Position numbers and translations under genes: made by a program
The notes under the pieces: model-generated
The model's input: the letters and a program-made list of their open reading frames with translations, nothing else
What the model was told of the DNA's origin: nothing
Databases searched by the model: none
Assembly (NCBI GenBank): GCA_020350885.1
Contig: CP070727.1
Location: 3,732,738-3,796,737 of the forward strand
DNA: 64,000 nt
Reading direction: 5' to 3'
Source: a bacterium
Lineage (GTDB): Bacteria > Krumholzibacteriota > Krumholzibacteriia > Krumholzibacteriales > Krumholzibacteriaceae
In this document: one piece after another, positions 33,501 to 60,267 of the stretch
How positions within the stretch are numbered: position 1 is the first letter of the stretch
Layout: each line of letters begins with the position of its first letter

Positions 33501-34636
33501 TAGCCGTAATGCGTTTGGATCATGTCGTTCTCCACAGAGACCGATTTGCCGTTTATCTCGTCACGGATAAACGGCATCATCTGCTGGCCCAATGCAGAAG
33601 AGATGATCTCGTACCGCCCGGCCGTGACGCCGGCGGCAAGCCAATCGTTGAATGCGGGGTCATGCCACTCTGCCGCTGAGATCAAGAGCCCCCCCTGGTG
33701 CCAGTTGAGCGGGAGGTTGTAGTAGTCGTGGGCGGCTAGAAGCTCGTCGGCGCCGTCATCGGGATTGTTTGGATCGCCGTCGTAGGCCGCCGCCTCACCC
33801 CGCTCGCCCCGGAAGACCGTTGTGTAGGTGAGCCCCTGGTTGAGATGGTGCATGAAGGCGACGTTGTGCGGGTTGGAAAGCATTTCGTTCGTGGCGGTGA
33901 TCTCATCGAGCACCCGTTGTCCGTCTGTCGTAAAGATATAAAAACCAATAGGGGTGTTGTCGTGTTCCGATACCGACGCTGCCACGGAACCGTATGCCTC
34001 GACCGTTGCGCCCGCCGCAGCGCATACCGCTTCCTTGAAGCCTCCGGGTAGCGTAATACTCGCCTCCAGGCAGGTCCACCGGTGCGAGCCGCGTGCATGC
34101 AGCACGGAAGCCCTCCCGCCCGGATACCTCCGCAGGGATGCATCGTCGGATGCCGCGACGGGAGCGACCCGGATGCGGGCCCGGATCCCGCCTCCATCGC
34201 CGTAGAGCTCAATCGCCCGATCCCACGCATGCGGCGGGGTGCCCGGAACACCGCCGGGAAGCTCCGCCGCCCCCCCATCCATGTAATCGAAGAGTACGAA
34301 TGCACGCACACCTTCACCGAGGAGCGGTGTATCCTCGGGTGTGCCCGGTGGCCGGTAAAGATTGATACGAACGGAAAGCCGGTCGACCCCCTGGTCGAAG
34401 TAGAATCCCATAAGATCGCCCAATCCATCTCTCCCACTGGCCCCGTCGTAGACCGGATCCAGTGCCTTCACACTCCCCCGATCCCACAGAGCGGGATCCC
34501 CTTCGAGTACCTCCCTTCCGGGCGATCTATCGACCGATGGATCCGGTCCGCCCGTCTGCGCACCGATTGATACGAGAAGTACGAAAAAGCTAAGGACGAT
34601 TACACTGAGGGTGGCCTTCCGCGGTAACGATTCCAT
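30590..34636 (-). CDS. Very large secreted GH57-related/glycoside-hydrolase-like multidomain protein with CBM9/DOMON-like module and T9SS C-terminal sorting domain
   Basis: 1348 aa; signal peptide; FMHHLNQ region reminiscent of GH57 N-terminal block; DWDSTYLYLGIRG module paralogous to that in 26802..29741; C-terminal YPNPSRS...AVVYDVAGRTV...GIYFLRV T9SS sorting domain. Confidence 0.55.
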   Translation of the reverse strand: MESLPRKATLSVIVLSFFVLLVSIGAQTGGPDPSVDRSPGREVLEGDPALWDRGSVKALDPVYDGASGRDGLGDLMGFYFDQGVDRLSVRINLYRPPGTPEDTPLLGEGVRAFVLFDYMDGGAAELPGGVPGTPPHAWDRAIELYGDGGGIRARIRVAPVAASDDASLRRYPGGRASVLHARGSHRWTCLEASITLPGGFKEAVCAAAGATVEAYGSVAASVSEHDNTPIGFYIFTTDGQRVLDEITATNEMLSNPHNVAFMHHLNQGLTYTTVFRGERGEAAAYDGDPNNPDDGADELLAAHDYYNLPLNWHQGGLLISAAEWHDPAFNDWLAAGVTAGRYEIISSALGQQMMPFIRDEINGKSVSVENDMIQTHYGYTPRVAWVPERVWCENPDVDGNGTDASANVIDYIGDDFTDNGIWAVLLDDYIHCEYNNGPLDDHHIYTYNAIKVLPMDGDFVGQMNWNAGDAWNTILAGTSDEIIIYGNDAEIAAEVSQGAGNPDALNNYIWVLQQCANAGGSVGVWKLTDVLQDPGFTTQPLLLQNGTYGLLGGHGGYGGGNNSWYGDWAGYTGDSNLDGHDPKWNYGTQWDFTLTKILSVPANNISEMAWYVLMTNLHETGWHDGGEISGWQHHYSNHIRSGNAHAEAARWAGGLYVDPAGAYTSDFDDDGVDELVLYNDRLLAVFDGIGGKLQWLFCKGSGYNYSVVSNDNVYWVDTDGDYNETNHVAALSDVSVGGIDRENDFYSFNVTDPVGNTVGAEIVHPSVTKTVSLTLGYPYLKVQYRASGERVYVKSGFTPDNLDLTWSGQSLERIWDPDGGGYFGQKNTNTDATAAIIVGTAGATHNFQFSATLLEGDELYGDSPFEVWVYGGYTSPTDIDGHIPELKALRDSLVDVMGPSPLSGTYYPATDHLVLYFDEEIDASTVVVTGISLDDDDDGIPDVSLTVLDSLTTTGFNKRLNFDLSAVTAASIEALTEPIELMLAANTVQDDAGNGNEAVTNADDVPVEIAPVTKYQIDGWLSDSEWSDPRVSCEDYWDSSWNGTAPGDTNEINVLFVDWDSTYLYLGIRGHVQGNSWILYLDTDVDGPEGYTDLTAIDTWERGATFSAAGFKVDYQYGAYQHQGPYDSQSMWHLTSDTTSENMSAQIFMAFDPQHIFGYDGGSELAIPWDVLYGLGPGQVPVGTSIGVVASVCWDPEPDGELGGDSTPSNVAATLPAIDTFCVAVVDSDNDGVPDPPSTTDVPEDGFRAVVRVLSAYPNPSRSMVRVPMILGSPSAGGSERYNVQAVVYDVAGRTVRTIFNGHLPAGRHLFSWNGRTRSGRPAAAGIYFLRVMIDGKGVGTTKILRLL

Positions 34637-35040: not shown

Positions 35041-37296
35041 ATGCTTCTGCGTAAGAATGTCGTTGTCATGCCGGTGTTTTGTGTGATGCTCCTCGCCGTC
35101 GCATCCTCGGGCATGTGGGCCCGCGATCCGCTCGACAAAGCGGCGGGAAAGGCGCATCAGAAACCTGAAAGGATCCGTGTCATTGACGGTAGCAACGTCC
35201 ACGATGTCGGCGAGCTCCAGGTGCACGTGGCCAACTGGGGACTATTCGGCTCGTTCCCATCTTCGAATTTTCCGTGCTCGCACGCCCCTTCCGCACAGTG
35301 GCCGGCCGGCAGCGGTATCGAGCACCTCTTCGGCGCCGGCCTCTGGGTCGGTGCGATAAAGAACGGGGTTCCCCACGTATCCACGTCACTCTTCGAGTTC
35401 GAGTTCATGCCCACGGATGATACGCTCGATGTGATCTACCGGACGTTCGAGGGGGCGCCGAACGGCGCCCGCATACCCTCTCCGTTCGCCGATGATGACG
35501 GTGACGGGGCGAGGGACGAGGACTTCCTCGACGGCCACGACAACGACGGTGACGGTCTCATCGATGAGGACTTCGCCGCCGTCTCGACGCAGATGTTCAG
35601 CTGCTGGTTCACCGACGACCAGCCGAATGCAACGGGCATCTACCCCGAGCACGAACCCCTCAATCTCCTTGTCAGGCAGGAGAGCTACCAGTGGGATGAT
35701 CCCCGCTTCGACGACTTTGTTGGAATTAAATTCACAATCACCAATACTGGCAACGTTCTGCTCGAGGATGTCCATCTGGGGTTCTTCGCGGACTGCGATG
35801 TCGGTCACCGAGATCGCCCGCAGTACTGGGAAGACGATGCCGAAGGGAGCTGGCGGGGAGCCCGCTGCACCGATATCGGACCCGCCCATCTGAATATCGG
35901 GTACTGTTACGATGCCGACGGGGACGAAGGCATGACAACGAGCTACTTCGGCGTTATGCTGCTCGGCCACACCATCGACCCGCTCGGTCTCCGGGCCCCG
36001 CGCCACGTCGAGCTCCATGCCTACCGGGTATTCAGCGGCACGCAACCCTACGAAAACGGTGGTGATCCCGTCAACGATTTCCAGCGATACGAAGTGCTCT
36101 CCACGTGGCGCATCGATGCAAACAGCCCCTCACCGAGGGACGTACGGTTCGTGATGAGCACGGGATCATTCCCGGAGCTCCCCCCCGGTGAGACGATCGT
36201 CATCCACATCGGACTCGTCGCCGGCGAGGGGCTCGAAGGCATGCTCGATAACGCCGCCTCGGCCCAGCGTCTCTTCGACGGCATCTGGTACGACTTCGAC
36301 GGTGACCCGGCGACAGGCATCGCCGGCAGGGAATCCCCCGTCTACGGTCCTGCACAGAACGTGTACATCGACGAATGCCGGCTGGATATCATCCAGCCCA
36401 TCGACGTCCCGGCAGGATCGGTCGTTTGGATCAACAACGACTGCCAGCGCGAGACGGAGCGTAAGCATATATGCTCATACGGCAGTGCCGACAGCCTCCT
36501 CTACCGGACCGGTGTCGCCGGCAGGGAAACACAGATCAACTGGTTTCTCGATGTCCCACCCCTTTCACTGCCCGTCCTGGACATCCGGCCGAGGCTGTGT
36601 CCGAATCCATTCCACCTGAAATGGATCTATGGCAACAGGGGAAGGAAACGGCCCTGGGGCGCCTTGATCCGCATTGCAATCCTCGGGATGGAGAACTTCG
36701 ACGTCAGGGATATCGACATCTCCTCACTGCGTCTCGAAGGTGTCGAGCCGCTGCGCTGGGGACGGCGCTACCGGGACGTCTCGAGGCCGGTTACCGGAAA
36801 AACCGGGTGCGAGTGTACGGCCGAGGGCCGCGACGGCTACCGCGACCTCATACTGCGATTCAGGGCCCGGGAGATCGGTGAGGCCCTGAGGGAGACGGGA
36901 CCTTTCGAGCCGGGCGATGAAAGGATGCTCACACTTACCGGCCTGCTCGAGGACGGGACGGCATTCACGGCCTCGGACTGTGTCGTATTCATTGGAAGAT
37001 GCCCACGGCCCGGGAGACCGGAGCCTCCGGAAGACAAGGACGAGCAGATACGGATATCACCGAATCCATTCAATCCGGTTACACGGATCACGTTCTATCT
37101 GGCGGAGCCCCGGCACGTCAGGATCTCCATCTACGATGTATCTGGACGGCTGATCGAACAACTTGCAGACGGGTGGCGGGAAGCGGGTGAACATACAATC
37201 GAATGGAGAGCGGGAGGTATCGCAAGCGGAATCTACTTCCTGCACATGGACGGAGGCACTATCTCCCAGACGCGCAAGATGATCCTATTGAGATGA
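35041..37296 (+). CDS. Secreted protein with acidic Ca-binding-like DxDGD repeats and T9SS C-terminal sorting domain, function unknown
   Basis: 751 aa; signal peptide; DDDGDGARDEDFLDGHDNDGDGLIDEDF; C-terminal ISPNPFNPVTRITFYL...ISIYDVSGRLI...GIYFLHM; GGAGGGAG RBS. Confidence 0.55.
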   Translation: MLLRKNVVVMPVFCVMLLAVASSGMWARDPLDKAAGKAHQKPERIRVIDGSNVHDVGELQVHVANWGLFGSFPSSNFPCSHAPSAQWPAGSGIEHLFGAGLWVGAIKNGVPHVSTSLFEFEFMPTDDTLDVIYRTFEGAPNGARIPSPFADDDGDGARDEDFLDGHDNDGDGLIDEDFAAVSTQMFSCWFTDDQPNATGIYPEHEPLNLLVRQESYQWDDPRFDDFVGIKFTITNTGNVLLEDVHLGFFADCDVGHRDRPQYWEDDAEGSWRGARCTDIGPAHLNIGYCYDADGDEGMTTSYFGVMLLGHTIDPLGLRAPRHVELHAYRVFSGTQPYENGGDPVNDFQRYEVLSTWRIDANSPSPRDVRFVMSTGSFPELPPGETIVIHIGLVAGEGLEGMLDNAASAQRLFDGIWYDFDGDPATGIAGRESPVYGPAQNVYIDECRLDIIQPIDVPAGSVVWINNDCQRETERKHICSYGSADSLLYRTGVAGRETQINWFLDVPPLSLPVLDIRPRLCPNPFHLKWIYGNRGRKRPWGALIRIAILGMENFDVRDIDISSLRLEGVEPLRWGRRYRDVSRPVTGKTGCECTAEGRDGYRDLILRFRAREIGEALRETGPFEPGDERMLTLTGLLEDGTAFTASDCVVFIGRCPRPGRPEPPEDKDEQIRISPNPFNPVTRITFYLAEPRHVRISIYDVSGRLIEQLADGWREAGEHTIEWRAGGIASGIYFLHMDGGTISQTRKMILLR

Positions 37297-37802: not shown

Positions 37803-38882
37803 CTACAACACGCCCCCGATGACGATCCCGTAGGCATCTTCGGAGTCGAATATAAACCAATGGGCCTGTGGATCGATCCGTGCATAATCGAGCTGCACCA
37901 TGATCCGCCCGAAGTCCCATCCAAGACCGATTCCGAAGGTATTGAAGCGTTCTCCCGGGAAGACCTCCTCGCACGCTCCAAAGCGTAGCTGCAGCATCTC
38001 GAGGATCGAAGCCTCCATGCCGAAGGCCCAGCCATCCTCATTGTTCGAGCCGGTGCCGCTCACGAGATCGAAATCGACCGAGACACCGAGGATCGCCACA
38101 CGGCGCCGCAGGGCATCGGTCAGCATCTCGTTCGACGGCGTGCCGAGATCGAGGCCGAAACCGACACGCTCCGCCCCCGGTTGCTCGGCGATGGAGCTGG
38201 CACCAAACTCGATACTTTCACCGAGATTCGAGACACTCGCACCCACGCGGGGACGCACGGTATAATCGCTCGACCGGAAGATATCGGCGGAGATAATAAC
38301 ACCGAGATCGAAGGCCCACAGCGAATAGTCCAAAACTGTGTTCGCATCGAGATACTTGGTCGTCACACCTACACCCATCTCCCATATCCCAGCCCTGAAT
38401 CCACCTGCACATGCACCGGAGACATAATAATCGGTATCATCTATCCCCTCCGCCTGACCCTCCGGAAGGTATATGGTTCTCATCCAGTCCACTTCCGCGG
38501 ACATCGTCGAATAGCCGATCGATCCCCCGACCATCCACCCTCCCTGATCTTCCCCCGACAGCCATCGGCGGCCTCCGGAAATGCGAGTATCGGTAAACGT
38601 CAGGTGAGAGCTCCAGTCGTTGATGCCGGTGCCGAGTGTTAACATCTGGCACCATGCGAAGCTCGCCGGATTGTAGTATCCCGTTGTAAATCCCATGATA
38701 TCCGAAGCCCCTGCGCCACCCATCCCAATGTTGCGTACACCCCGAGGGAAGAATGCGGCCGTCAGCACTCTCGTTTCTACCCGCTCAAACGGTGTCTGAG
38801 CTTGTACGGCGTGAGAGAAAAAAGCCAGAACCGCAGCACCGATAATGATACCTCTTCCTACATCTCGCCTATGGGATACCAT
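37803..38882 (-). CDS. Outer-membrane beta-barrel protein, PorV/PorQ-like (T9SS-associated) family candidate
   Basis: 359 aa; signal peptide; N-terminal GVRNIGMGGAGASD...YYNPASFA motif resembling PorV/PorQ-type N-terminal signature; aromatic C-terminus. Confidence 0.4.
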   Translation of the reverse strand: MVSHRRDVGRGIIIGAAVLAFFSHAVQAQTPFERVETRVLTAAFFPRGVRNIGMGGAGASDIMGFTTGYYNPASFAWCQMLTLGTGINDWSSHLTFTDTRISGGRRWLSGEDQGGWMVGGSIGYSTMSAEVDWMRTIYLPEGQAEGIDDTDYYVSGACAGGFRAGIWEMGVGVTTKYLDANTVLDYSLWAFDLGVIISADIFRSSDYTVRPRVGASVSNLGESIEFGASSIAEQPGAERVGFGLDLGTPSNEMLTDALRRRVAILGVSVDFDLVSGTGSNNEDGWAFGMEASILEMLQLRFGACEEVFPGERFNTFGIGLGWDFGRIMVQLDYARIDPQAHWFIFDSEDAYGIVIGGVL

Positions 38883-39022
38883 ATTGTTTTTCCTCCCCGG
38901 TTAGATCAACCAAACAAAGCCCCGACATCTCCCCTATATAGTATAATAATATATATTATACACAATTTTGCATAAGATGCAGTATAAATATCAGTTAAGC
39001 TGCATTTGAATAAAAATTTTCC

Positions 39023-39051
39023 TTGACCTCAAAAACGGTTACTTCTATAAT
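39023..39051 (+). promoter_or_regulatory. Near-consensus sigma70-type promoter TTGACC-N17-TATAAT upstream of precursor-peptide ORF
   Basis: TTGACC 39023-39028, 17-nt spacer, TATAAT 39046-39051; AT-rich UP-like region upstream (38930-39020). Confidence 0.5.
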
Positions 39052-39138
39052 GCGATCCGCAACTTAGGGACGATACAATCAAGTAAATCTGGTGTGCCCT
39101 TTGATACCTAATCATGTCATGGGGGGAGGTGAATAGGT

Positions 39139-39270
39139 ATGGTATTCGAATATGAAGACACCATGGCAGGCGATCTCGGAGGAGCAATTACCGCAACATT
39201 GTGCAGGATAGGTTTCACACCTGTTTGCGGAGGTTCATCACCTGAGACCATCTCCGGTTGCGTTACCTAA
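39139..39270 (+). CDS. Candidate RiPP precursor peptide (lanthipeptide-like), 43 aa: MVFEYEDTMAGDLGGAITATLCRIGFTPVCGGSSPETISGCVT
   Basis: Not in ORF track (<60 aa). GGGAGGTG RBS 7 nt upstream of ATG; in-frame TGA immediately upstream; acidic leader with GG motif followed by a 28-aa core with 3 Cys and 7 Ser/Thr; first ORF of an operon encoding kinase and LanC-like proteins. Confidence 0.55.
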   Translation: MVFEYEDTMAGDLGGAITATLCRIGFTPVCGGSSPETISGCVT

Positions 39271-39304
39271 TGGGTCGACCGTAAAGAATCATTAGATACA
39301 CAAA

Positions 39305-39323
39305 GAGCACAGTGCTCGTTTTG
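39305..39323 (+). terminator. Weak hairpin + U-tract (GAGCA-CAG-UGCUC-GUUUUGU), possible partial terminator/attenuator after precursor gene
   Basis: 5-bp stem, 3-nt loop followed by T-rich run, 35 nt downstream of the precursor stop codon. Confidence 0.25.
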
Positions 39324-39420
39324 TAACTACTCGTACCAACTCCTGATTTTGAGTGTAGCCAGGGGGCACGTCAGATACGGGGATGGTGGTAGAGGTCTGC
39401 CGTTCTTACCGGGATTCTCC

Positions 39421-39448
39421 TTGCTACTCAAAGTTCCTTCCATATAAT
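39421..39448 (+). promoter_or_regulatory. Possible internal promoter TTGCTA-N16-TATAAT upstream of modification-enzyme genes
   Basis: TTGCTA 39421-39426, TATAAT 39443-39448; about 40 nt upstream of the ATG at 39487 with GAGGA RBS. Confidence 0.3.
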
Positions 39449-39486
39449 TCTCTGAAACCGGATTGAAATATCACTCGAGGACAAGA

Positions 39487-40689
39487 ATGCTCGACAAGAC
39501 ATTTCGCTTGAATCCCGTCTTCTCGATAACACCGATCGAAGAGCTGACGGAGGAGCAGCGGAGGAACTTCCGGCGTATCCTTTCGGGTAAGGGTATTTAC
39601 AGTCTGCTCCATGCCCCCAGAGAAGCGAATTTCACGGTGAAGGCCTTGAACCGTCCCCTCTCCGACTTCCTCGAAGATCTACGGGAGCCAACCGTACTGA
39701 CGGACCTTCTGGAGAAATTTGGAGAAGAATCCGATAAGGATGTGCAGCAGCTCATCACACGTTTTCTCCTGGATGGTGTCCTGGAGGTTCGTACACGCGG
39801 AGGTTTTGTAAGCGGCATAGAGGCCCTCAATTCGCTGCTGTCCCTCTCGGAACCGGTACCCGTCCCGGCGGATGCCGACGATTCGAACTACATCCGCAGG
39901 ATCTCCAGCGCGGCGCTCGATATCGCCATGAAGAGCACCTACAAACATACCCGTGATATCGCCTGGATCCTGTATAATTTCAACCGCATGCCGATGAACC
40001 GGGCCCGCCGCCGGCAACTGCCGGATGAGGAAGCAGTGCTCGACTTTCTCGGCCTGGACGGGGATGGCTGCTGGACCGGGATGCCCGATACGATACGGCC
40101 GGTACCTCCGGAGACTGATGAAGACGGTAATTTTACGCCGTTCTTCCAGGTCTGGAGATCATGGACGATCAGCCCAAAGCGAGGGAAAAAAAACGAACTG
40201 GGGTATAAGGTGTATGTAAGTGCCCTACCCGATGAAACACCCGAGGTATTCAAGATAGTGAGGGAACATATCGCCGATGCCGGGGCCAGCTCGATGAAGA
40301 TCGGAAGGGTGGGTTCCGCCATGCTACGCTGCGACAAACTCCTGGTGTATTTCAAGAGCATCGAGACGGCCATGGAGTTTGGTAGGGAAATCGCCAAATT
40401 GACCACCGCGTTTCATGGACAGGGCGTCCCGTTCACGTATCCCCTGGAACCGGAGAACCGCCTGATCAGTATCGGTGTCGATCCGCCCGGAAAGTTCAGC
40501 ATCGTGAATAGTTGGCGCCGCTATGTGACCGATAAACTCGCCGTTGCCATTCAGGGTGCCCACAGGGAGAGAGCGCAGGATCCGCTGGGCTACATTCGCA
40601 CAAATATGAGATTATTTGGCGTTGATATCGATGAATGGCGCCCCGCAAGCAGAGACTGGACCATGGAATTCGACCTCGATACCGAATAA
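39487..40689 (+). CDS. Unknown 401-aa protein, candidate stand-alone phospho-Ser/Thr lyase (OspF/SpvC/HopA1-like) of a split lanthionine synthetase
   Basis: Start MLDKTF with GAGGA RBS (ORF track starts 39463); C-terminal half contains GYKVYVSALPDE resembling the SpvC/OspF catalytic GDKFHISV Lys motif; gene order (this - kinase - LanC) mirrors domain order lyase-kinase-cyclase of class III/IV lanthipeptide synthetases. Functional call is inference. Confidence 0.4.
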   Translation: MLDKTFRLNPVFSITPIEELTEEQRRNFRRILSGKGIYSLLHAPREANFTVKALNRPLSDFLEDLREPTVLTDLLEKFGEESDKDVQQLITRFLLDGVLEVRTRGGFVSGIEALNSLLSLSEPVPVPADADDSNYIRRISSAALDIAMKSTYKHTRDIAWILYNFNRMPMNRARRRQLPDEEAVLDFLGLDGDGCWTGMPDTIRPVPPETDEDGNFTPFFQVWRSWTISPKRGKKNELGYKVYVSALPDETPEVFKIVREHIADAGASSMKIGRVGSAMLRCDKLLVYFKSIETAMEFGREIAKLTTAFHGQGVPFTYPLEPENRLISIGVDPPGKFSIVNSWRRYVTDKLAVAIQGAHRERAQDPLGYIRTNMRLFGVDIDEWRPASRDWTMEFDLDTE

Positions 40690-40693
40690 GCTG

Positions 40694-41938
40694 ATGTCAG
40701 AAAAGAAAAAGAAGCATAACCGGCGCATCTGGCGCTTATCCTCCGATGTCGTAATACGCCCGGTGACGGAGATGCCGGAGGAGGCAATCGAACAGATAAC
40801 ACAGAACAAAAGGAATCCGGAGAACTACTTCGGAATCGAACGGAAGAAATCACGAGCACAAGCCAAGATCGTCAACAAGGACGTCATAGATGTACTGAGG
40901 GCTTTCGGGGATGAGGGCAAGACCTACGATGAGGTGCTCGAATACTTTCTCGAACTCAAGGGACTCGAGCGGGATGAGCTGCACCCGGCAATGTCTAAGA
41001 TGGTAAATACCTTCATTGGCAGCAATTTTCTGGTCGAGGGAAGGAGATACGACAAGGACACTTCCGAATCCGTCGAGCCCAGCTTCCAGGATGGTGACAG
41101 GTGGCTCTCATACAGGATACTCAAGAATGTCCACGTTATTATCGACACCGAGATCTACCAGGTGGAACATATTCCCTCCGGCGTAACGAGGGCCTTGAAG
41201 ATCACTCAACCCACGTTTCCGCGAGAGAAGATGAAGAAGAAGATATTCAAGCGGCTCGAGCACGAATTCAAAACCATTCAAAAGATCAAACATCCTAATA
41301 TCATCAAGGTCCACGATTACGGAATGCACGAAGGGCGTATGTACGGGATCCTCGACTGGGTGGATGGAAGATCGGTATACTCGCACGCCTACGATTCGGG
41401 CACTCCCCCGCATGATGGCCTGCTGCTCGAACTGTCGATCGAGTGTCTCGAGGCGCTCGGTGCCGTTCACAGGGCACGGTACCTCCATGGCGACGTTCAC
41501 ACGAGAAACTTCCTCATAAAGAACGGTCATGTCTGCCTTATCGATTTCGGTCTCTCACGCCCCATAAAGGTCAGAAAGGCGGAGGAGCGCAGGTACGTCG
41601 AGGGCGGGGTTATACGATTCATGCCGCCGGAGTATGTGCAGTACAAGCTCGAGGAAAAGAAGGGGTTATGGGGGAGTATCGCCGGTGAGATATACTCGGT
41701 GGGAGTAATGATCTTCTCGCTTTTCACCAGCACATACCCGTACAAGTGGTCGTTCTATCGCAAGGATTTTATGGAACATATTCTAAACGACCCGCCTCCG
41801 AGTTTCGAGGAGTGCGAACGCGACCCCTGGCCGGAACTCGAAGCCGTACTGCACAAGGCCCTGGAAAAGGATCCGAAAGACCGGTTTGCCAGCGTGGACG
41901 AATTCAGCCGGGCATTACAAAAACTCTCCGTCCCCTAA
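40694..41938 (+). CDS. Ser/Thr protein kinase (Hanks-type) with ~190-aa N-terminal extension; candidate lanthipeptide kinase component
   Basis: ATG 5 nt after upstream stop (translational coupling); kinase subdomains: RALKI (VAIK), HPNIIKV, HGDVHTRNFLI (HRDxxxxN), DFGLS, PPEY (APE), DPKDRF. Confidence 0.75.
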   Translation: MSEKKKKHNRRIWRLSSDVVIRPVTEMPEEAIEQITQNKRNPENYFGIERKKSRAQAKIVNKDVIDVLRAFGDEGKTYDEVLEYFLELKGLERDELHPAMSKMVNTFIGSNFLVEGRRYDKDTSESVEPSFQDGDRWLSYRILKNVHVIIDTEIYQVEHIPSGVTRALKITQPTFPREKMKKKIFKRLEHEFKTIQKIKHPNIIKVHDYGMHEGRMYGILDWVDGRSVYSHAYDSGTPPHDGLLLELSIECLEALGAVHRARYLHGDVHTRNFLIKNGHVCLIDFGLSRPIKVRKAEERRYVEGGVIRFMPPEYVQYKLEEKKGLWGSIAGEIYSVGVMIFSLFTSTYPYKWSFYRKDFMEHILNDPPPSFEECERDPWPELEAVLHKALEKDPKDRFASVDEFSRALQKLSVP

Positions 41939-42001
41939 CAGGCGAGAAGGGCCGGTATACCTCATACACACTGCGGATCCGGTACAGAAAGTGAACACGG
42001 T

Positions 42002-43132
42002 ATGAACGCAACAGCCTGGCAGGAGAAAGCCCTGAAGGGTCTCAAGAAGCTGTCCGATTGCCGATTCGAGAGCTTCAATATGATACACGGCCCGCCGTAC
42101 CGCTCGCTGAACAACGGAGCTACAGGCATCGCATATACATTCTGGAAGGCCGCCAATGTCCTGGATGATCCCGAATGGCTTCATCACGCACGCCTCTGGA
42201 TAGACCATACCGTGGCCCTGCCCGAGGATGACCGCATCGTCGGCCTTCCGGAGGATGAAGGGGATTCGGCCGAAATAGAGATCGAGGACTCGCTCTATCA
42301 TGGTAACAGAGGTCTTCAGTTTGTGAAGATGCTTGTGGCGTATGCACAGGCGGACGATTACAACGCCAACAAGTTTTTACGGCAATTCGAAAAGCCGACA
42401 GCCAGGAGATCGGAGGCTCAGGAGCTTCTCCAGGGCGTCCCGGGCCGGTTGGTGGGCTTTGCGATTCTCTACGAAGAGACGGGGTACGATTATATAAAGG
42501 AAAAGGGCGACGAGGTCACCGAGGAGCTGCTGGGGACGGCGGATCTATCCATGAAGGATACCCTCTGGGGCAACAACCGGTATCTGGGCATCGCCCACGG
42601 GCGCGCCGGCATACTCTATTCTCTTCTTTTCTGGTCGAGGGCTTCCGGATACGTTCTACCGGACCGTATACATGAAGAGGTTACAAAGCATGCTGCATTC
42701 GGGATAGAGCAGGAACACGGGCTCAGATGGCCCATACAGGAGCACAAGGAGGATAGGTTCATGGATAGCTGGTGTCACGGCACCCCCGGACAGCTCCATC
42801 TGTGCTCCCTCGCCTACGAGCTCTACAAGGAGCCGCTTTTCCTGAAAACTGCACGCGGCGCCGGGGAATCTATCATTCACATCAAGGGATATCCACTTGG
42901 GCACCTGTGCTGCGGGTCAGCCGGTGCAAGCTACGCACTCCTCTCCCTTAATCGGATAGATCCCGGCGGGCCATGGCTGGACCATGCCATCAGGTTCGCC
43001 GAGATGAGCGAGAAAGCCCAGTTGATAACGCGGTTCAGGCTCGGTCTGTATACCGGATTGGCCGGCGTTGTATGCCTGATGCTCGATATGACAAATGTGG
43101 CCGAAGCGCGGCAACCGGGATTTCAGGGCTGA
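42002..43132 (+). CDS. LanC-like lanthionine cyclase domain protein
   Basis: 376 aa; LanC signature blocks: NGATGIAY, LYHGNRG, IAHGRAGILY (GxAHG), SWCHGTPG (WCxG), HLCCGSAG (position of CHG block, here C-C-G). Confidence 0.7.
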   Translation: MNATAWQEKALKGLKKLSDCRFESFNMIHGPPYRSLNNGATGIAYTFWKAANVLDDPEWLHHARLWIDHTVALPEDDRIVGLPEDEGDSAEIEIEDSLYHGNRGLQFVKMLVAYAQADDYNANKFLRQFEKPTARRSEAQELLQGVPGRLVGFAILYEETGYDYIKEKGDEVTEELLGTADLSMKDTLWGNNRYLGIAHGRAGILYSLLFWSRASGYVLPDRIHEEVTKHAAFGIEQEHGLRWPIQEHKEDRFMDSWCHGTPGQLHLCSLAYELYKEPLFLKTARGAGESIIHIKGYPLGHLCCGSAGASYALLSLNRIDPGGPWLDHAIRFAEMSEKAQLITRFRLGLYTGLAGVVCLMLDMTNVAEARQPGFQG

Positions 43133-43171
43133 GTGAAGGACCGCGATGGGGATTCGATGCAAAGTCCCGCA

Positions 43172-44236
43172 CTACCTGGATAGACCATCCATTATCAATC
43201 GATAGAGCCGGACTTCCGGCTTTACTACTATCTCGGTCCTACCCGTCAAACCGTATTTGAGGAAGGTCCGGTCGCCGTTCTCCTCTTCCACCCAGGGTTC
43301 CTCTATCGCTATTTCGACCTCGAATGTGGATTGACCACGTGAGACCATCGGGACCGATGCAATCCTGCCCACCCTTCCCTCGAAGACCTTGTACTCCCTA
43401 TGGGGATAACTATTCAAGAATATCTTCGCGTCCTGGCCCCGCTGTACATCCGTGATATCGGTTTCACCGATATCGGCAGAAAAGATCACCGTATCAAAGA
43501 ATCCGATCTCCATAACCGGCTTCCCCTTGCCGACCATGGTACCTACCAGGTTCTCCGGTGCAGCGGTCAGTACGGTCCCTTCCCCTGGTGCCAGTACAAC
43601 GGTCTCATCCAGCTTCTTCTTCGAAAGTGCGAAGGAGCTTTCCGCCAGCTCGAGGTTTCTGCGCTTTTCCTCTATCTGCCGTTCGAGCTGCTTCTTGAGA
43701 ATCTGGTTTCTGGACTTGAGAATCTCGTAGTATGACTTGCTCGACTCGTAGCCGAGTTTCGCCCTCTCGTACTCCTCGGCGTTGACCAATTCCTTATCGA
43801 AGAGCTTTGTTACCCGCTCGAGGTTCTCCTCGTTGAACTTCATTCGTTGCTCTGCTTCGTTGAGATCGGCCAGTATCATGCCGAGCTCGTATGACTTGCT
43901 CGTCGTCAGATTCCTGTATTCATCTTCCGCTCTCCTGAGCTCGGAACGGGCATTTGCCAGTATATTCCCCGCGCGCTTAACCTCCAGCTCGATCTCTTCA
44001 GAATAAATGGTGAAAAGGGTGTCGTTTCTCGCAACCTTTTCTCCCTCAATGACAAAGACTTCTTCGACTATGCCGTTGATTCTCGGCGCGACACCGACCT
44101 GCCGTCCCGGCGAGACCATGCCAAAACCTTCGACGGTCTCATCCATCTTGCCGAAGTAGAGAACGGCGGCGGCACAAATGAGGATCGAGATCGCAATATA
44201 GAAGGCAAATGCGAATACTTTCGTTACCCGTTTCAT
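43172..44236 (-). CDS. HlyD-family membrane fusion protein (secretion/efflux adaptor)
   Basis: 354 aa; N-terminal TM anchor, long coiled-coil (heptad EE/KR-rich 100-200), beta-barrel/lipoyl-like C-terminal region; downstream of ABC exporter gene. Confidence 0.75.
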   Translation of the reverse strand: MKRVTKVFAFAFYIAISILICAAAVLYFGKMDETVEGFGMVSPGRQVGVAPRINGIVEEVFVIEGEKVARNDTLFTIYSEEIELEVKRAGNILANARSELRRAEDEYRNLTTSKSYELGMILADLNEAEQRMKFNEENLERVTKLFDKELVNAEEYERAKLGYESSKSYYEILKSRNQILKKQLERQIEEKRRNLELAESSFALSKKKLDETVVLAPGEGTVLTAAPENLVGTMVGKGKPVMEIGFFDTVIFSADIGETDITDVQRGQDAKIFLNSYPHREYKVFEGRVGRIASVPMVSRGQSTFEVEIAIEEPWVEEENGDRTFLKYGLTGRTEIVVKPEVRLYRLIMDGLSR

Positions 44237-44281
44237 GTCTATCAGTGTACCCTGTATCCGTGGGTAATCCGGACGATATCG

Positions 44282-46081
44282 CTACCGGTTCTGCGACTTC
44301 CTCGTCTTCGTTATCCTCGACTCACTTTCACGTGTCATTTGATCCCACAACATCCTGTATATCCCGCCCCGGTTCATGAGATCTTCATGGATACCTACCT
44401 CGGCGAACCGCCCCTCATACAGGACATAAATTGCATCCGCATCAATAATGGAAGTTAATCTGTGGGCCACGATGATTGTGGTTTTCTTCTCCATGAGTGG
44501 TTCCAGGGCCCTGTGAATAAATAATTCCGATTTCGTATCCAGTGAGGACATCGCCTCATCGAGAATCAGAATCTCCGGATCCTTCAGTATCGTTCTTGCT
44601 ATCGAGATCCTCTGACACTGGCCGCCCGAGAGCCGCAGGCCCCTTTCCCCCACTACGGTGTCGTAACCGTCGGGAAGGCTCGTTATGAAGCCATGGATAT
44701 CAGCCTTCCTGGCGGCCTCCAGGATCTCGTCCTTCGTGGCCCTCCTGTTACCATACATGATGTTCTCTCGTATCGTCGTATTGAACAGGATGGTTTCCTG
44801 TGATACCAGACCAATGTGCTGCCGCAGGGAATGCAGCTTGATCTCCCGCAGATCTGTGCCGTCAATTAGAACCCGACCCGATGTCGGATCGTGGAACCTG
44901 CTTATGAGATCGACGATCGTGCTCTTTCCAACGCCGCTCGGACCAACGACGGCGACCCTCTGCCCGGGATCGATATGCATGGAAACATCGATCAGAACAG
45001 GCTCGTCGGGGTTATAAGAGAAATGAACCTTTTCGAAATCGATTTCACCCCTCACCCTCTCGATTCTCCTGCTGCCGGGAATATCAACGATCATCGGCTG
45101 GACATCGAAGAACTCGAAGATCCTGTCGATCGCCGCACGTGCCGTCTGGATCGAAACATTGTACTGCGCAAGCCTGAAGATCGGCCTGAAGAGCCTGCCC
45201 ACGTATGCATAGAAGGCGACGAAGCTGCCCAGGGACAGGGCACCCGCCATGACCTGGCGGGCCCCGTATACAAGTACGATTACAGGACCGAGTGTGGATA
45301 GGAAGACGGCGATCGATGCCGACACCGCTCCCAGTACACCCAGGGTTATTCTCAGATTTATGAGTTCCTTGCTCTTTCGTAACAGACGTATCGCTTCGAA
45401 TCTCTCCTTGACGAAGGACTGGATGAGCTTGATGGACGAGAAGGTTTCCTGGAAAAAACTTACTATCTCTGCCGATTTATCGCGGGTCTCCCTGCTCTTC
45501 TTCTTTATCTTGCGCCCCAGGTAAAACTGGGTGATGAACAGGGCAGGGAAGATCACCATCGACAACAGAGCCAGCTTCCAGTTGAGGAACAGCATGATAA
45601 CAATGATGATGGCAATTGATGCGATATCGGTCACGAGGGCTATCAGTGTTGTGGTGAGAACATCCTGCACTCTCGATACATCGTTGTTGACCCGCGTAAT
45701 GATTTCACCTGTCTTGGTCTCGGTAAAAAATCCTATGTGAAGATGCTCCAGGTGCCTGAAAAGGTCGAATCTTATGTTGAAGAGGATCCTCTGACCTACA
45801 TACTGTATCAGGTAGTTTATGACCACCCTCATTCCACATCTCAGAAGAAAGAGCGCTATCAGGGCGATGACGATTACATTTAAAAGAGGTATGTTCCTGT
45901 CGATTATCACGTCGTCGATCACTATCTTCATTGCAAGCGGATCGAGCAGGGATAGCCCGGCGACGATCATCATCAGGAAGGCAATGCCCAGCTCCAAACC
46001 GAGAAACGGTTTGATGTACCTGATGATTCTCTTCGACGATTTCTTCGGAGCATTTTCTCTATCTGATTTCATACAAACCAC
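44282..46081 (-). CDS. ABC exporter, fused TMD-NBD (type I exporter, MsbA/peptide-exporter-like); no N-terminal C39 peptidase domain
   Basis: 599 aa; six TM helices then Walker A GPSGVGKST, Q-loop, signature LSGGQCQR, Walker B ILILDEAMSSLD, H-loop. Confidence 0.85.
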   Translation of the reverse strand: MVCMKSDRENAPKKSSKRIIRYIKPFLGLELGIAFLMMIVAGLSLLDPLAMKIVIDDVIIDRNIPLLNVIVIALIALFLLRCGMRVVINYLIQYVGQRILFNIRFDLFRHLEHLHIGFFTETKTGEIITRVNNDVSRVQDVLTTTLIALVTDIASIAIIIVIMLFLNWKLALLSMVIFPALFITQFYLGRKIKKKSRETRDKSAEIVSFFQETFSSIKLIQSFVKERFEAIRLLRKSKELINLRITLGVLGAVSASIAVFLSTLGPVIVLVYGARQVMAGALSLGSFVAFYAYVGRLFRPIFRLAQYNVSIQTARAAIDRIFEFFDVQPMIVDIPGSRRIERVRGEIDFEKVHFSYNPDEPVLIDVSMHIDPGQRVAVVGPSGVGKSTIVDLISRFHDPTSGRVLIDGTDLREIKLHSLRQHIGLVSQETILFNTTIRENIMYGNRRATKDEILEAARKADIHGFITSLPDGYDTVVGERGLRLSGGQCQRISIARTILKDPEILILDEAMSSLDTKSELFIHRALEPLMEKKTTIIVAHRLTSIIDADAIYVLYEGRFAEVGIHEDLMNRGGIYRMLWDQMTRESESRITKTRKSQNR

Positions 46082-46218: not shown

Positions 46219-47520
46219 CTACGCGGCGTTTCCGATTGGTAGTGATTTGCTCATATCCAGTCGCTGAACCGACGCAACGAGCCTGTACAGTGTTATCTGA
46301 AGAAGCAAGCTGGCGCAGAGGAGCATACCGTACCTGCTGTACGTGATCCAGTGATCGAACCGGTTGAAGACGAACACACTCGATAATGCACATGAAACGA
46401 CCGTCGCAGCAGAGAGCAGAATAGACTGGAATCCGTGCGAGTGCCGGAACGAGTGTAGTTGCTTCAAGAGCACGGCCTGGCAGAACGGGAGGAAGACGAA
46501 GTAATGCGGCCACGACGTCTGCAGGATGAACGGCAGGGCAAGAAAGAGCGTCACAGCGGACAGCGCCTCCTTGTCCCGTACCGACGACTTCTGGATCAAC
46601 CACAGCAACGCGAGATTCGCGCAGGCGACCGCATAACCGAGCAGTTTCAGCACAACGGCCGCTGTCCCCGTTGCTCCCGAGGACATGAATCTGAGAGCAA
46701 CGTGGGCGAAATACTGTGAATTCGGATTCTGTGCGATCAACGAAGAATCCGGTATCGCCGCGAAGGATTCCCTGTGAAACGTGAGCCACTGATACGGTCC
46801 CATGACCAACGCCGGAGAGACAAAGAAGAGGATCAAAAGAGCAACGAGGAATGAAGACAACACTCGGAGATCACGCCGGAAGACGTAATACAGGATGAAT
46901 ATCCCGGGATAGTACTTGATCGATGTACCGAGGGCGAGCAGGAATCCTGCGAGGACGCGCCGGTCGCGCCTGTATGCATGAAATGAAGCGATGATGCAGA
47001 GGGTCACGAGTACACTCACCTGTCCCCACTTGAAGTTATGGAGCAGGGGGAGGGATGTAACGAATAGAAACACGTAGAGGGTGGTGCCGCGCCAGGAAAG
47101 ACGCAGCAGGTCCTTGAGCGGGACGATGCAGAGAAGTACCCCAAGCACGATCTGTAGGGCTCCCCAGAACCAGGTCGCCGCCGGGAGGGGTGCCGAACCG
47201 AATGGGACGAGGAGAAGTGAGAAGAAGGCGGAGTAGAGGTATCCGCCGACCGGCCTGGCGGATGAGAGGACGATTCTCCCCATCGTGTGAAAGTGCCTGA
47301 CGAAATCGCAGAATAGCGTGTCGCAATGATCGATTGCCGAGACGAATCCGGAGACACTTTTCCATTCTACCCGGTAATACACCGCTACGAGCGCGAGTGC
47401 CAGGGACACAGCAACCAGAGTCGCTTTACACTCCCAACGGGTACCGGCATTCGTAACCAACAACGATCGTCTCCACCGTTCGCCCGGATCGAGGCGATGA
47501 CCATATCGCTTTCTGCACAT
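46219..47520 (-). CDS. Polytopic membrane protein, possible GT-C-like (DUF2029/GT87-like) glycosyltransferase
   Basis: 433 aa, >10 hydrophobic helices, conserved-looking loop motifs; N-terminal extent uncertain. Confidence 0.35.
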   Translation of the reverse strand: MCRKRYGHRLDPGERWRRSLLVTNAGTRWECKATLVAVSLALALVAVYYRVEWKSVSGFVSAIDHCDTLFCDFVRHFHTMGRIVLSSARPVGGYLYSAFFSLLLVPFGSAPLPAATWFWGALQIVLGVLLCIVPLKDLLRLSWRGTTLYVFLFVTSLPLLHNFKWGQVSVLVTLCIIASFHAYRRDRRVLAGFLLALGTSIKYYPGIFILYYVFRRDLRVLSSFLVALLILFFVSPALVMGPYQWLTFHRESFAAIPDSSLIAQNPNSQYFAHVALRFMSSGATGTAAVVLKLLGYAVACANLALLWLIQKSSVRDKEALSAVTLFLALPFILQTSWPHYFVFLPFCQAVLLKQLHSFRHSHGFQSILLSAATVVSCALSSVFVFNRFDHWITYSRYGMLLCASLLLQITLYRLVASVQRLDMSKSLPIGNAA

Positions 47521-47628
47521 GGTAGCACCCCGACAATTCTATTGACAATCGATAACCATAATCTACAATGGATCATACAATTAGAGTGGCATAATCCTGC
47601 CCTACGACCTTTGAGCAAGGAGGTTTTG

Positions 47629-48789
47629 ATGCCGCAACCAATTGATTATGACGAAGATCGTATCAAACGATTGATACAGGAAAAGCAGGCAAACGAGATC
47701 GAGCTGGCCTGGGATCTTCTGGAGGTCTTCAACACCAACGAACCACTAGTCGGTCCGCTGAGACAGCTCGTCAGCTTTGCGGTGGATGAGCTGGAGGAGA
47801 TGAAGAGGGAGAGTCATATCGGACATCAGATCGTCAAGGCGGCCTGGAACAAGGAGGTCGGGGGTCCCAAGAACAAGACATTGATAAATTACGGGAATCT
47901 CATAAAGATACGGAACAACGTACCGGCTCTCAAGGCCGAGGAGTGCAACGACATTATCCGCTACTACGGCGAAGTCGTCGAGATGGCGGCAGAGAAATAC
48001 AGGGCACAAAAGAAAGCAGCAAAGTATGTACCCCCCACAGGCACGCTGAGGAAATACGACGTGCTGGATACAGAGAAGGGTACATTCCGCAGGGGAGGTG
48101 ACCCCGTCTGGAAGGTCGGACGACAGCGCGATAAGAAGCCTCCGACTGCCCCGGTGGAACATCCGTACAGCGCTCCATATGATTTCATATACAGCCAGAA
48201 AGGCGGCATAGCGAATATCACACTCAGAGACACCAGCACGGTTCTCAGGATCGACAGGGTATTCGGGTTGGCGCTGGCCGGCGATATCTCCGGCACGACG
48301 ACCGATGCACTGTTCTTTATCAACCGCTACGCAAACCTGTTCCGCGCCCAATTCAATCAGTATCCTCTTTTTGCAGGGGCGCTCGATGATCCCATCTACC
48401 AGTTACTTCCTCTTGCGACACTCGTGGCTGGCGGGCACCATTCGCTGGTCGAGTCGGCTCTGTCCCTCACGATCAACAGGCATCTCACCGGTGTGAACTA
48501 CAAGATCGGTTTGTACACCTCGCTGCTTCCCGACAACACGAATCACCCAACGCGGGGTGAGATATGGAATAAGCTGCACCTGGCCGAAACGAATATGCGC
48601 AACCGCCTCATGCTCATCTACTACAAGAGGCCGACCCGGATCGGGGGATGTTTCCTCTTCGCCAAGAAGGGAATTGAGAAACACCAATTCGAGCAGCTGG
48701 CGACGGCGAATCTACACCTGTTGCATACCTTCATGCAGTGTCATTTGTGGCCCACGGAGGAGTATGTCCGGCGCCTCTTCGAGGCATAG
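47629..48789 (+). CDS. Hypothetical soluble protein (386 aa) adjacent and convergent to the T6SS PAAR-like gene; possible effector/cargo or immunity candidate
   Basis: Start MPQPIDYDEDRIK with AAGGAGG RBS (ORF track starts 47326); no recognisable motif. Confidence 0.45.
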   Translation: MPQPIDYDEDRIKRLIQEKQANEIELAWDLLEVFNTNEPLVGPLRQLVSFAVDELEEMKRESHIGHQIVKAAWNKEVGGPKNKTLINYGNLIKIRNNVPALKAEECNDIIRYYGEVVEMAAEKYRAQKKAAKYVPPTGTLRKYDVLDTEKGTFRRGGDPVWKVGRQRDKKPPTAPVEHPYSAPYDFIYSQKGGIANITLRDTSTVLRIDRVFGLALAGDISGTTTDALFFINRYANLFRAQFNQYPLFAGALDDPIYQLLPLATLVAGGHHSLVESALSLTINRHLTGVNYKIGLYTSLLPDNTNHPTRGEIWNKLHLAETNMRNRLMLIYYKRPTRIGGCFLFAKKGIEKHQFEQLATANLHLLHTFMQCHLWPTEEYVRRLFEA

Positions 48790-48806
48790 GGAAACCGGGC
48801 CGTCTG

Positions 48807-49166
48807 CTACTTCGTTTCCTCGATTACATTGCTGGGATTGGTGATACTGATCATCCCGCCGATTCCACACACCAATTTACTCGTATCCGTAAGGACCGGC
48901 AGGTTGTTGATCTTCTGAACGATCGACCCGGGCATCCATGTACCGGCGGGCGCCATGGCGCACGGTGTGGGCGTACCCATGGCCGATGCGGTTAATATCT
49001 GACACGTGCCGAAGGGTGGCAGGTTCGACCCGGTCACGCAGTCCTGGATCGTTGCGACCAGCATGCCGCCTATCTTGACGATCTGCTGGCTCGTCACAGA
49101 CAGCGTGGACGGGGCACTGCCCATGGGACAACTACACATCGCTCCCTGACAGACCGCCTTCGGCAT
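48807..49166 (-). CDS. DUF4280 PAAR-like spike-tip protein
   Basis: 119 aa MPKAVCQGAMCSCPMGSAPSTLSV...PFGTCQ...PCAMAPAGTWMPGS...KLVCGIGGMISI: Cys/Gly/Pro pattern of DUF4280 PAAR-like proteins; last gene of contractile-system operon. Confidence 0.6.
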   Translation of the reverse strand: MPKAVCQGAMCSCPMGSAPSTLSVTSQQIVKIGGMLVATIQDCVTGSNLPPFGTCQILTASAMGTPTPCAMAPAGTWMPGSIVQKINNLPVLTDTSKLVCGIGGMISITNPSNVIEETK

Positions 49167-49224
49167 TATGGATCCTTCTCTGCTATCGTAATTCTCCGTG
49201 TGCCGCCCGTCGCAGGCGACACCG

Positions 49225-49911
49225 TCACGAATCCTTCTTCCTGACCTTCCCCAGTGCCGTATTCAATCCGACGACCGGCAATTCCACACCGGTTGTACCT
49301 TTCTCTTCATCCTTACGGATCAATTGCATCGTATAATCACTCTCGCTGACACGGAAACGAAGGACGTAATCCAGATTCAACGGGACGGCACGCTCGAGTG
49401 AGCTCATGATGCAATCGACGACATCCGGGCGCTGCCTCAATACGGTCGCCTGTGCCATCTTCAGCTCGACATCGATGGTCAGGGTCCACACGGTCTCGGC
49501 CGGGCTCGAGCCCAGAGCGATTTCCTGGCCGATGGGTGCACTGCCAAGGGCAAAACCGGAACCGCTCGATTCAACGAGCGGCCTGCTCCCGATACGCCTG
49601 CATTCGAGACCTATCGTCACAGGCGCCCGCCCTACCTCCTCGGCCTCCTCCCTGCTCGTGGCGAGCAGTATCGAGAATCCGAGACAAACCACCGTCTGCA
49701 CGAGTTTGCGCAGGCTGTCCTGATCGTTGCTGGATGAGAGAATGTAGGCGCGCACATGACGCCACACGCGGTATTCATAGTAGGTCCGCAGCAATGCAGT
49801 CACATCATTGTCCTCGACCGTCTCATCCCGTGGTGTCGAGGAGACGAAGCGGCTCTCCACCCTGCCCCGGATGTAACTATCCCGTTCGATGGACAGTGCT
49901 CCGGTAGACAT
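49225..49911 (-). CDS. Hypothetical T6SS-associated protein (possibly baseplate TssG/TssE-like)
   Basis: 228 aa, operon position between VgrG-downstream gene and PAAR-like gene; no clear motif. Confidence 0.3.
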   Translation of the reverse strand: MSTGALSIERDSYIRGRVESRFVSSTPRDETVEDNDVTALLRTYYEYRVWRHVRAYILSSSNDQDSLRKLVQTVVCLGFSILLATSREEAEEVGRAPVTIGLECRRIGSRPLVESSGSGFALGSAPIGQEIALGSSPAETVWTLTIDVELKMAQATVLRQRPDVVDCIMSSLERAVPLNLDYVLRFRVSESDYTMQLIRKDEEKGTTGVELPVVGLNTALGKVRKKDS

Positions 49912-49915
49912 CCCC

Positions 49916-51430: not shown

Positions 51431-51446
51431 ATGCTACACCTGCCGA

Positions 51447-52955: not shown

Positions 52956-53011
52956 ACGAATACACCTCCACCTCTTGTGCCACCGGGCTCACATTGTGAC
53001 GTTTCGGATGT

Positions 53012-53434
53012 CTATTCTGCGAACAACTTCTCTCGAGCGTCGTGTTTGAAGTTCTCCCCCGAGATCGTGACCTCGGTCGCAATGAAGTTGACATTAAAGT
53101 TGAAGTTGTCATCGTGCTCGGAAACGCTCGTGGCGATATCTGAAAACCAGGCCTTCGAGAAGGTAATGGTCTGAATTGCCTGGCCCTCCTTCTTGTCGTC
53201 ATGCCCCTTGAACACCGATATCTGCCCCTTGCCCTTCGCCTTGGCATTGGCATGCTGGGTCCTCGCAAAGTTGAAGAAATCCTTTGCGGGTGACGCCTTC
53301 GGGGGTATCTCCAGGGCTACGTTGATCGATCCCGGGATGCAATCGGCGAGCTGGTGGGCACCTGCGCTCTGTAGCGAAACGCTGAAGGCGTTTACCTTGT
53401 AAGTCTTGTTGTTCCATTTGAATTCGATGACCAC
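53012..53434 (-). CDS. hcp: Hcp/tail-tube-like protein
   Basis: 140 aa, size and position (between sheath-like and VgrG-like genes), beta-rich composition. Confidence 0.5.
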   Translation of the reverse strand: MVIEFKWNNKTYKVNAFSVSLQSAGAHQLADCIPGSINVALEIPPKASPAKDFFNFARTQHANAKAKGKGQISVFKGHDDKKEGQAIQTITFSKAWFSDIATSVSEHDDNFNFNVNFIATEVTISGENFKHDAREKLFAE

Positions 53435-53509
53435 GATTCAACCTCCTTTATAAACGATTAACGGTTACAATCGCTCCTGCGGTACGGACCGATACGAGCA
53501 GCCCACTCG

Positions 53510-55620: not shown

Positions 55621-55646
55621 GTGAAACCTCCAGCATTAATGCCGGC

Positions 55647-60238: not shown

Positions 60239-60267
60239 CCCAATATGCCTCTCGTTACAGCGTGCAC

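Follow-up and report, generated by a model that had tools for sequence, protein, structure and literature searches.

The 64,000-nucleotide stretch of Krumholzibacteriaceae DNA that we analysed (GenBank assembly GCA_020350885.1, contig CP070727.1, positions 3,732,738 to 3,796,737; hereafter the window) contains three adjacent genes, for a lyase-like protein, a Ser/Thr kinase and a LanC-like cyclase, which are the subject of this report as a candidate lanthipeptide synthetase. The genes are intact open reading frames (ORFs) on the same strand, in the order and at the positions given by a preliminary description of this DNA, and a gene for a short peptide lies just upstream. Two of the enzymes carry N-terminal domains related to the recognition element (RRE) of RiPPs, peptides that are made on the ribosome and modified after translation. 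The features on which the argument is built are the following.

39139-39270, + strand: gene for a putative 43-residue precursor peptide, an ORF preceded by a Shine-Dalgarno-like run (ggggggagg), with leader MVFEYEDTMAGDLGG and core AITATLCRIGFTPVCGGSSPETISGCVT.
39487-40689, + strand: stand-alone RRE-lyase gene (400 residues), whose product is a predicted phospho-Ser/Thr lyase forming dehydroalanine or dehydrobutyrine.
39496-39843, + strand: N-terminal RRE domain of the lyase, residues 4-119 approximately, from the predicted fold.
39889-40656, + strand: lyase domain of HopA1/LanY/OspF fold, residues 135-390 approximately, with a KxY...K...R...Y catalytic set, from the predicted fold and conservation.
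40694-41938, + strand: stand-alone Ser/Thr kinase gene (414 residues; Pkinase, 5.3e-25), whose product has an N-terminal RRE-like domain.
40724-41032, + strand: N-terminal domain of the kinase, residues 11-113, a homologue of the lyase RRE by hhalign.
42002-43132, + strand: stand-alone LanC cyclase gene (376 residues; LANC_like, 2.8e-36), with a Cys-Cys-Cys zinc site of the CCG type.

The first and second genes are separated by 4 nt (TAA gctg ATG), the second and third by 63 nt. Given this difference in spacing, translational coupling, which had been claimed for all three, holds for the first junction only. The separation of the kinase and cyclase reading frames is not a sequencing frameshift, since it is seen again in four more assemblies that are independent (loci L001, L004, L006 and L007 among those described below). 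This recurrence, together with the intact catalytic residues, also rules out the possibility that the genes are an artefact or pseudogenes.

The product of the first gene, 400 residues long and not 401 as first reported, starts at an ATG that matches the N-termini of its homologues in an alignment (37 were collected and 34 aligned with the window protein). Its AlphaFold model (mean predicted local distance difference test score, pLDDT, 85.1) has the alpha/beta lyase fold of the OspF/SpvC type as far as prediction goes. Two independent methods agree on this fold, one of them being Foldseek, in which the first 31 matches were all HopA1, LxmY, LanKC or SpvC/OspF/VirA proteins. The similarity to phospholyases of the OspF/SpvC type that the preliminary description had suspected is thus found in the model. 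The best structural match is the class V lyase LxmY, with LxmY and HopA1 at the top at fold level, and the modelled protein is structurally closer to the LanY/HopA1 group than to the fused lyase domains of class III or to SpvC. The only sequence match, a sub-threshold one, is to RamC_N (PF25816; E 0.0054, 16.7 bits versus a cut-off of 27, residues 227-267), a model of the class III lyase domain; the matched stretch surrounds the motif GYKVYVS (residues 239-245). Weak matches to OTUB1 and to a phosphoprotein were discarded as due to chance.

GYKVYVS had been likened to the catalytic Lys block of OspF/SpvC, and the likeness is not confined to the motif. K241, Y243, K271, R281, D283, K284, Y288 and F289 are invariant in 78 family members, and the spacing of K241-K271-R281-Y288 (30/10/7, mapped by motif and spacing and not by superposition) resembles that of the catalytic sets R187-K219-R229-Y236 of CaoY (32/10/7) and K104-K136-R148-Y158 of SpvC (32/12/10; PMC9486802). 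In sub-threshold hidden Markov model (HMM) alignments, KVYVS falls on the KIHIS block of LanKC. By its fold, and by a catalytic set that matches in spacing, the modelled gene 1 product is a predicted phospho-Ser/Thr lyase.

Several points weigh against this assignment. It rests on predicted structure and conservation and not on a match to a sequence family: the first protein is indeed of unknown family, as originally stated, since it reaches the threshold of none of the families in Pfam or NCBIfam and gave nothing significant when it was compared, singly and as a profile, with Pfam, NCBIfam and PDB sequences. The HopA1 family PF17914 does not match the window protein and gives weak matches in 5 of 35 relatives (best E 0.037). 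Finally, the position of the acid His106 of SpvC is occupied by Tyr (Y243). One could envision on these grounds that the 400-residue protein is a non-catalytic partner which uses its RRE to bind the leader or to act as a scaffold, its lyase-like domain being dead and dehydration taking place elsewhere or not at all. The presence of an RRE, the want of a significant sequence match to active lyases and the missing His106 equivalent would all suit such a role. We nonetheless regard it as very unlikely. The positions that never vary among 78 diverse relatives are those which, by spacing and in the sub-threshold HMM alignments, fall on the Lys/Lys/Arg/Tyr catalytic set known from SpvC and CaoY; active LanY enzymes do without His106 as well (PMC9486802); and the ORFs of the cluster, scanned against Pfam, include no other dehydratase gene (LanB or LanM).

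The second protein proved to be a Hanks-type Ser/Thr kinase, as proposed, with the motifs HGDVHTRN, DFG and PPEY. Searching the three proteins against Pfam, a check suggested at the outset, left the first without a family and confirmed Pkinase and LANC_like for the other two, Pkinase (PF00069) covering residues 154-399 of the kinase at 88.7 bits. A match to APH (PF01636; 31.6 bits) is limited to residues 253-289, that is, to 37 residues at the catalytic loop. Of 74 relatives, 73 retain K169, H265-x-D267, N272 and D284-F-G. The nearest named lanthipeptide families in NCBIfam are LanL (1.1e-8) and LanKC (3.4e-7), with scores far below the cut-offs of both.

Ahead of the kinase domain lies an extension of about 150 residues (the estimate of 190 in the preliminary description was too high), for which a role in leader binding had been suggested. 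When family profiles were compared by hhalign, residues 11-113 of this extension were found to be homologous to the N-terminal domain of the lyase, with a probability of 95.4%, as against 0.1-1.5% in three controls, and an E value of 1.7e-8 over 91 columns. This N-terminal domain of the lyase is itself predicted to adopt the RRE fold, a PqqD-like, winged-helix-like structure. Since the kinase extension is homologous to this domain, the suggestion that it binds the leader is strengthened, and by the same token leader binding can be predicted from the fold for the lyase.

The third protein carries the blocks expected of a LanC-like cyclase (GIAHG, WCHG and CCG), in keeping with its initial description. 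H199, C258, C303 and C304 occur without exception in the 67 relatives examined and correspond to the three-Cys zinc site of the CCG type plus a His. In the NCBIfam ranking LanM comes first and LanL next, and the nearest neighbours among solved sequences are LanCL2, GCR2 and LanCL1, which fits the published grouping of LanCL proteins with the kinase-linked cyclases of class IV (PMC7268733). These same neighbours would be expected if the kinase/LanC pair modified cellular proteins in the manner of eukaryotic LanCL, as a signalling or repair module and not as part of a peptide pathway. This seems to us extremely unlikely: conserved Cys/Ser/Thr-rich peptides with a family-specific leader lie beside the enzymes, an exporter is adjacent, and the RRE-type domains on lyase and kinase are typical of RiPP systems.

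The peptide encoded at 39139-39270 has the makings of a LanA-type precursor, being short, with a conserved leader and a core containing Cys and Ser/Thr, and being encoded next to the synthetase genes. The core holds three Cys, five Thr and three Ser (eight Ser/Thr), and the gene is the sole copy in the window. Within the window's clade, each of the five loci that extend far enough (L001, L004, L007, L008 and L084) has one or two homologous peptides encoded upstream of its lyase gene, and 13 relatives were retrieved from a collection of 5.8 billion proteins, where all the named ones are annotated as hypothetical. Conservation within this family covers the leader motif M-x-F-E-Y-x-D-T-M, the Gly with which the leader ends, all three Cys and the majority of the Ser/Thr, and nucleotide substitutions fall mainly at third codon positions (for example 4/4/26). 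The conserved leader motif would be consistent with binding by RRE-type domains. The peptide and enzyme genes are accompanied by putative regulatory sites and by transporter genes.

39023-39051, + strand: TTGACC-17-TATAAT, a promoter-like site lying upstream of the gene for the precursor, with 11 of 12 matches in a consensus scan.
39305-39317, + strand: small hairpin followed by a T-run between the precursor and the enzyme genes, a possible attenuator, from a scan for terminator-like sites.
43172-44236, - strand: gene for a HlyD-type membrane fusion protein (HlyD_D23, 2.1e-16), probable export partner, convergent with the operon.
44282-46081, - strand: gene for an ATP-binding cassette (ABC) exporter of 599 residues with transmembrane and ATPase domains (ABC_membrane, 2e-46; ABC_tran, 3e-34).

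The HlyD-type gene has conserved counterparts beside LanC at L001 (41% identity) and L004 (57%), and the C-terminal part of the ABC exporter is conserved in L001 at 63% identity. We consider it very probable that the whole is a lanthipeptide biosynthetic cluster with a synthetase spread over three proteins. On the debit side, the cluster contains no leader protease, the Pfam scan finds no C39 peptidase domain in the ABC exporter, and no immunity or regulator gene was identified at the cluster. The promoter-like call is weak, and the consensus may differ from the promoters of the Fibrobacterota-Chlorobiota-Bacteroidota (FCB) group, and the call of the hairpin is speculative, the number of terminator-like sites in the scan not being above shuffled expectation.

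The folds, conserved residues, synteny and precursor family described above are computed; from homology we infer the chemical steps, the ring pattern, a complex of lyase and kinase, export and leader cleavage, for which the following course can be proposed. The precursor would be recognised through its short N-terminal leader, the M-x-F-E-Y-x-D-T-M motif docking on the RRE domains. The kinase, with ATP, would phosphorylate Ser/Thr residues of the core, and the lyase would then remove the phosphate by beta-elimination to give dehydroalanine and dehydrobutyrine, K271 presumably acting as the base, K241 stabilising the enolate, R281 binding the phosphate and Y288 assisting. The zinc-dependent LanC (putative ligands C258, C303 and C304; acid H199) would close up to three (methyl)lanthionine rings by addition of the three Cys thiols; for these rings Thr3/5-Cys7, Thr12-Cys15 and Thr22/Ser24-Cys26 are plausible pairs. 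The product might be exported by the ABC/HlyD pair, and the leader might be cut after the conserved Gly15 by a protease encoded outside the cluster.

How widespread the arrangement is emerged from a scan of one genome per species, which gave 196 loci with a relative of gene 1; 80 of the 196 were fetched and 83 loci, from genomes and metagenomes of many phyla, analysed. A kinase sequence, including the N-terminal extension, follows the gene 1 homologue in 82 of these 83 loci and a LanC-like sequence is present in 79, so that the lyase-kinase-LanC arrangement is far beyond chance. Kinase and LanC form one protein of about 800 residues at 70 of the 83 loci. They are consistently split only in the window's clade, which is of FCB type and comprises Latescibacteria, Ignavibacteria and other metagenome-assembled genomes (MAGs; 39-75% identity), and the split form is probably the derived state. 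An exhaustive HMM search for the lyase family returned representatives of 1,574 clusters formed at 50% identity (E <= 1e-30 for 1,095 of them), the top 150 of which are all stand-alone proteins of 358-507 residues. The hosts are mainly Acidobacteriota; Gemmatimonadota, Burkholderiaceae, Amaricoccus, Bacillus, Dictyobacter, Actinomycetota, Chitinophagia and Elusimicrobia also occur, and the wider host listing adds Proteobacteria, Chloroflexota, Bacteroidota and FCB-type MAGs.

At many of the loci with a fused kinase-LanC, the upstream peptides are longer (60-140 residues) and have a leader of the form F-x-V-K-D-L-M-I or K-I-R-D-L-G-I, a middle part rich in Cys, Ser and Thr, and a helical tail at the C-terminus, where an amphipathic helix (L..LK.QL...L) is discerned. 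Such a leader-core-follower layout is unusual for a lanthipeptide precursor. Examples are found in L009 (4797-5832), L034 (5456-5836), L047 (5446-5832), L076 (1465-1848) and L067 (5618-5944), among others. We counted about 25 clear loci; the regular expression employed also returned spurious ORFs (for example in L020, L021, L040, L048 and L069).

Individual loci depart from the general picture. L008 (5992-8620) has precursor, RRE-lyase and LanC genes with no kinase gene between them; the MAG concerned also holds L007, where the set is complete, so that one kinase may serve both loci in trans. L057 and L068, from MAGs labelled Nitrososphaerales archaeon, carry a lyase and a fused kinase-LanC, which points either to a binning artefact or to archaea having acquired the pair horizontally.

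In its chemistry and in its order of activities (lyase, Hanks-type kinase, zinc-dependent LanC-like cyclase), the window system resembles the class IV synthetases LanL, such as VenL and SgbL, and it was originally presented as a LanL-like system cut in three. The order and the activities stand. The remainder of that view does not, for the lyase is nearer to LanY/HopA1, RRE domains are present and the commoner form of the system has two genes. LanL is one polypeptide with an N-terminal lyase, whereas the window has three ORFs with stop codons between them. Leader recognition in classes III and IV is described as independent of an RRE motif, the LanL leader being bound by the kinase domain (PMC8341899), whereas lyase and kinase of the window both have RRE-type domains. 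The zinc site is of the CHG type in LanL and of the CCG type in the window cyclase.

An ordinary LanL that had undergone gene fission or assembly breakage, its parts not being new, would account for the gene order and the zinc ligands, and for LanL ranking first among named lanthipeptide families with the kinase and the fused relatives and next after LanM with the cyclase. It is an improbable explanation, however. The LanL model NF038150, whose cut-off is 650 bits, gives 34 bits with the kinase, 69 with the cyclase and 154 with a fused kinase-LanC from Bacillus. The alignment of this fused protein begins only at profile position 190, so that it lacks the lyase domain of LanL and amounts to a LanL-like kinase-cyclase. 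In addition, the region preceding the kinase is a homologue of the RRE and not a lyase, and breakage is hard to reconcile with a split seen in four other independent assemblies. The separate proteins, the wide shortfall from the LanL cut-off and the RRE domains thus place the system outside class IV. It is not of class III either, since zinc ligands are present: the LanKC enzymes (ThurKC, CurKC, SalKC and PneKC) are single polypeptides with a cyclase devoid of these ligands, whereas the window cyclase is separate and its three Cys and His are invariant. Against the LanKC model NF038151 (cut-off 575) the window proteins score 29 and 34.5 bits.

Class V calls for closer comparison. The preliminary description held that three-component systems of kinase, lyase and cyclase are otherwise known from this class alone. 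Such systems do exist there: according to papers that cite its original description, subgroup Vb (for example SmoC) employs stand-alone LanK, LanY and LanC, and class V has so far come from actinomycetes. Because these stand-alone proteins can cooperate, the three-component concept is not new. The window system might then be a Vb member outside actinomycetes. It shares with Vb the three stand-alone proteins, the three activities and the use of a LanC, and the best structural match of its lyase is LxmY. We find this decidedly improbable. The class V kinases (LxmKY, CaoKY) are of the APH type (PF01636), whereas Pkinase is dominant in the window kinase and APH is confined to the catalytic loop. 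LanY proteins match PF17914, which the window lyase does not reach, and have Arg at the position of SpvC K104 (R187 in CaoY; PMC9486802), where the window lyase has the invariant Lys241, mapped by motif and spacing. RRE domains are, as far as we found, not mentioned for LanK or LanY in the accessible literature either. The Pkinase domain and the Lys in place of Arg separate the system from class V; the lyase, while it does not reach PF17914, has LxmY and HopA1 as its top matches at fold level. Going by sequence, then, the architecture lies outside classes III, IV and V.

Proteins outside lanthipeptide biosynthesis share single elements with the system. The type III effectors OspF, SpvC and HopA1 act on host mitogen-activated protein kinases and have no RRE, and the window lyase has Tyr in place of the acid His106. 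The RRE-dependent enzymes NisB/MibB, lasso B1, LynD and PqqD have the same winged-helix-like fold as that predicted for the N-terminal domain of the window lyase; there the RRE serves glutamylation, cyclodehydration, radical S-adenosylmethionine or protease chemistry. Nowhere in the searchable literature did we find an account of an RRE joined to a phospho-Ser/Thr lyase or to a Hanks kinase, and the window architecture as such is undescribed in the full texts searched, a body of literature that leaves out most subscription journals. What sets it apart is the combination of a class IV-like kinase and zinc cyclase with a stand-alone lyase of class V type, with RREs on both dehydration enzymes. 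It is tempting to speculate that we are dealing with an unrecognised, RRE-dependent class of lanthipeptide synthetases, fully split in the window into an RRE-lyase acting in trans, an RRE-kinase and a Cys3-zinc LanC, numbering some 1,500 lyase clusters and including long, follower-type precursors among its products. We advance this proposal tentatively, as one that falls somewhat short of an even prospect.

Lanthipeptide classes are defined by synthetase architecture, and that of the window is outside the classes described in the accessible literature. Published mining rules assign any Pkinase-LanC fusion to class III or IV, and numerous "class IV" clusters are listed by environmental surveys for peat rich in Acidobacteriota, so that the two-gene form may be hiding among the latter. 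Going by these rules, the two-gene form is probably concealed under the "class IV" label and the three-gene form probably left unclassified. If the proposal is correct, the RRE-lyase of about 400 residues, for which Pfam and NCBIfam have no model, would provide a new marker for genome mining, and many "class IV" or unclassified LanC clusters from poorly explored soil and sediment phyla would have to be re-annotated. The 13 close relatives of the window precursor point to a new peptide family, and kinase, lyase and cyclase modules that are naturally separate and, as their sequences suggest, individually guided by the leader might be of use in peptide engineering.

Positions 38001-46000, which include the peptide cluster and the transporter genes, have a G+C content of 0.51-0.55, versus about 0.59 in the stretch before it, at 32-38 kb; the difference hints at horizontal acquisition of the cluster. 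Adjoining the ABC exporter is a gene for a GT87-family membrane glycosyltransferase (46219-47520), which is probably unrelated to the cluster since it was not found near the cluster at related loci. Its 5' end overlaps the start of an opposite-strand ORF of 487 residues, the true start of which is uncertain for that reason.

After the transporter genes, a type VI secretion-like gene set extends from 47326 to 61365 on the minus strand. It includes genes for a PAAR-like DUF4280 protein (48807-49166), a VgrG-like protein (51447-52955; Phage_GPD and Phage_base_V) and a ClpV-like double AAA ATPase (55647-57923). The ORFs without a family that lie among them (47326-48789, on the plus strand, 49225-49911, 49916-51430, 53510-54928, 54925-55620 and 58020-61365) could encode effectors, immunity proteins or structural parts.

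On the other side of the cluster are genes for three large secreted proteins (26802-29741, 30590-34636 and 35041-37296). Two have weak GH57-like regions and C-terminal domains of the FlgD_ig type, and the third has a Por_Secre_tail sorting domain; these sorting and tail domains lend support to the early guess of a genome of FCB type with a type IX secretion system. Further upstream, the minus strand carries, side by side, genes for polyphosphate kinase 1 (14859-17078) and for a PPK2 with tandem domains (17119-18798), and 5497-7716 encodes a BcsA-like family 2 glycosyltransferase with a C-terminal PilZ domain, a polysaccharide synthase of the type regulated by cyclic di-GMP.

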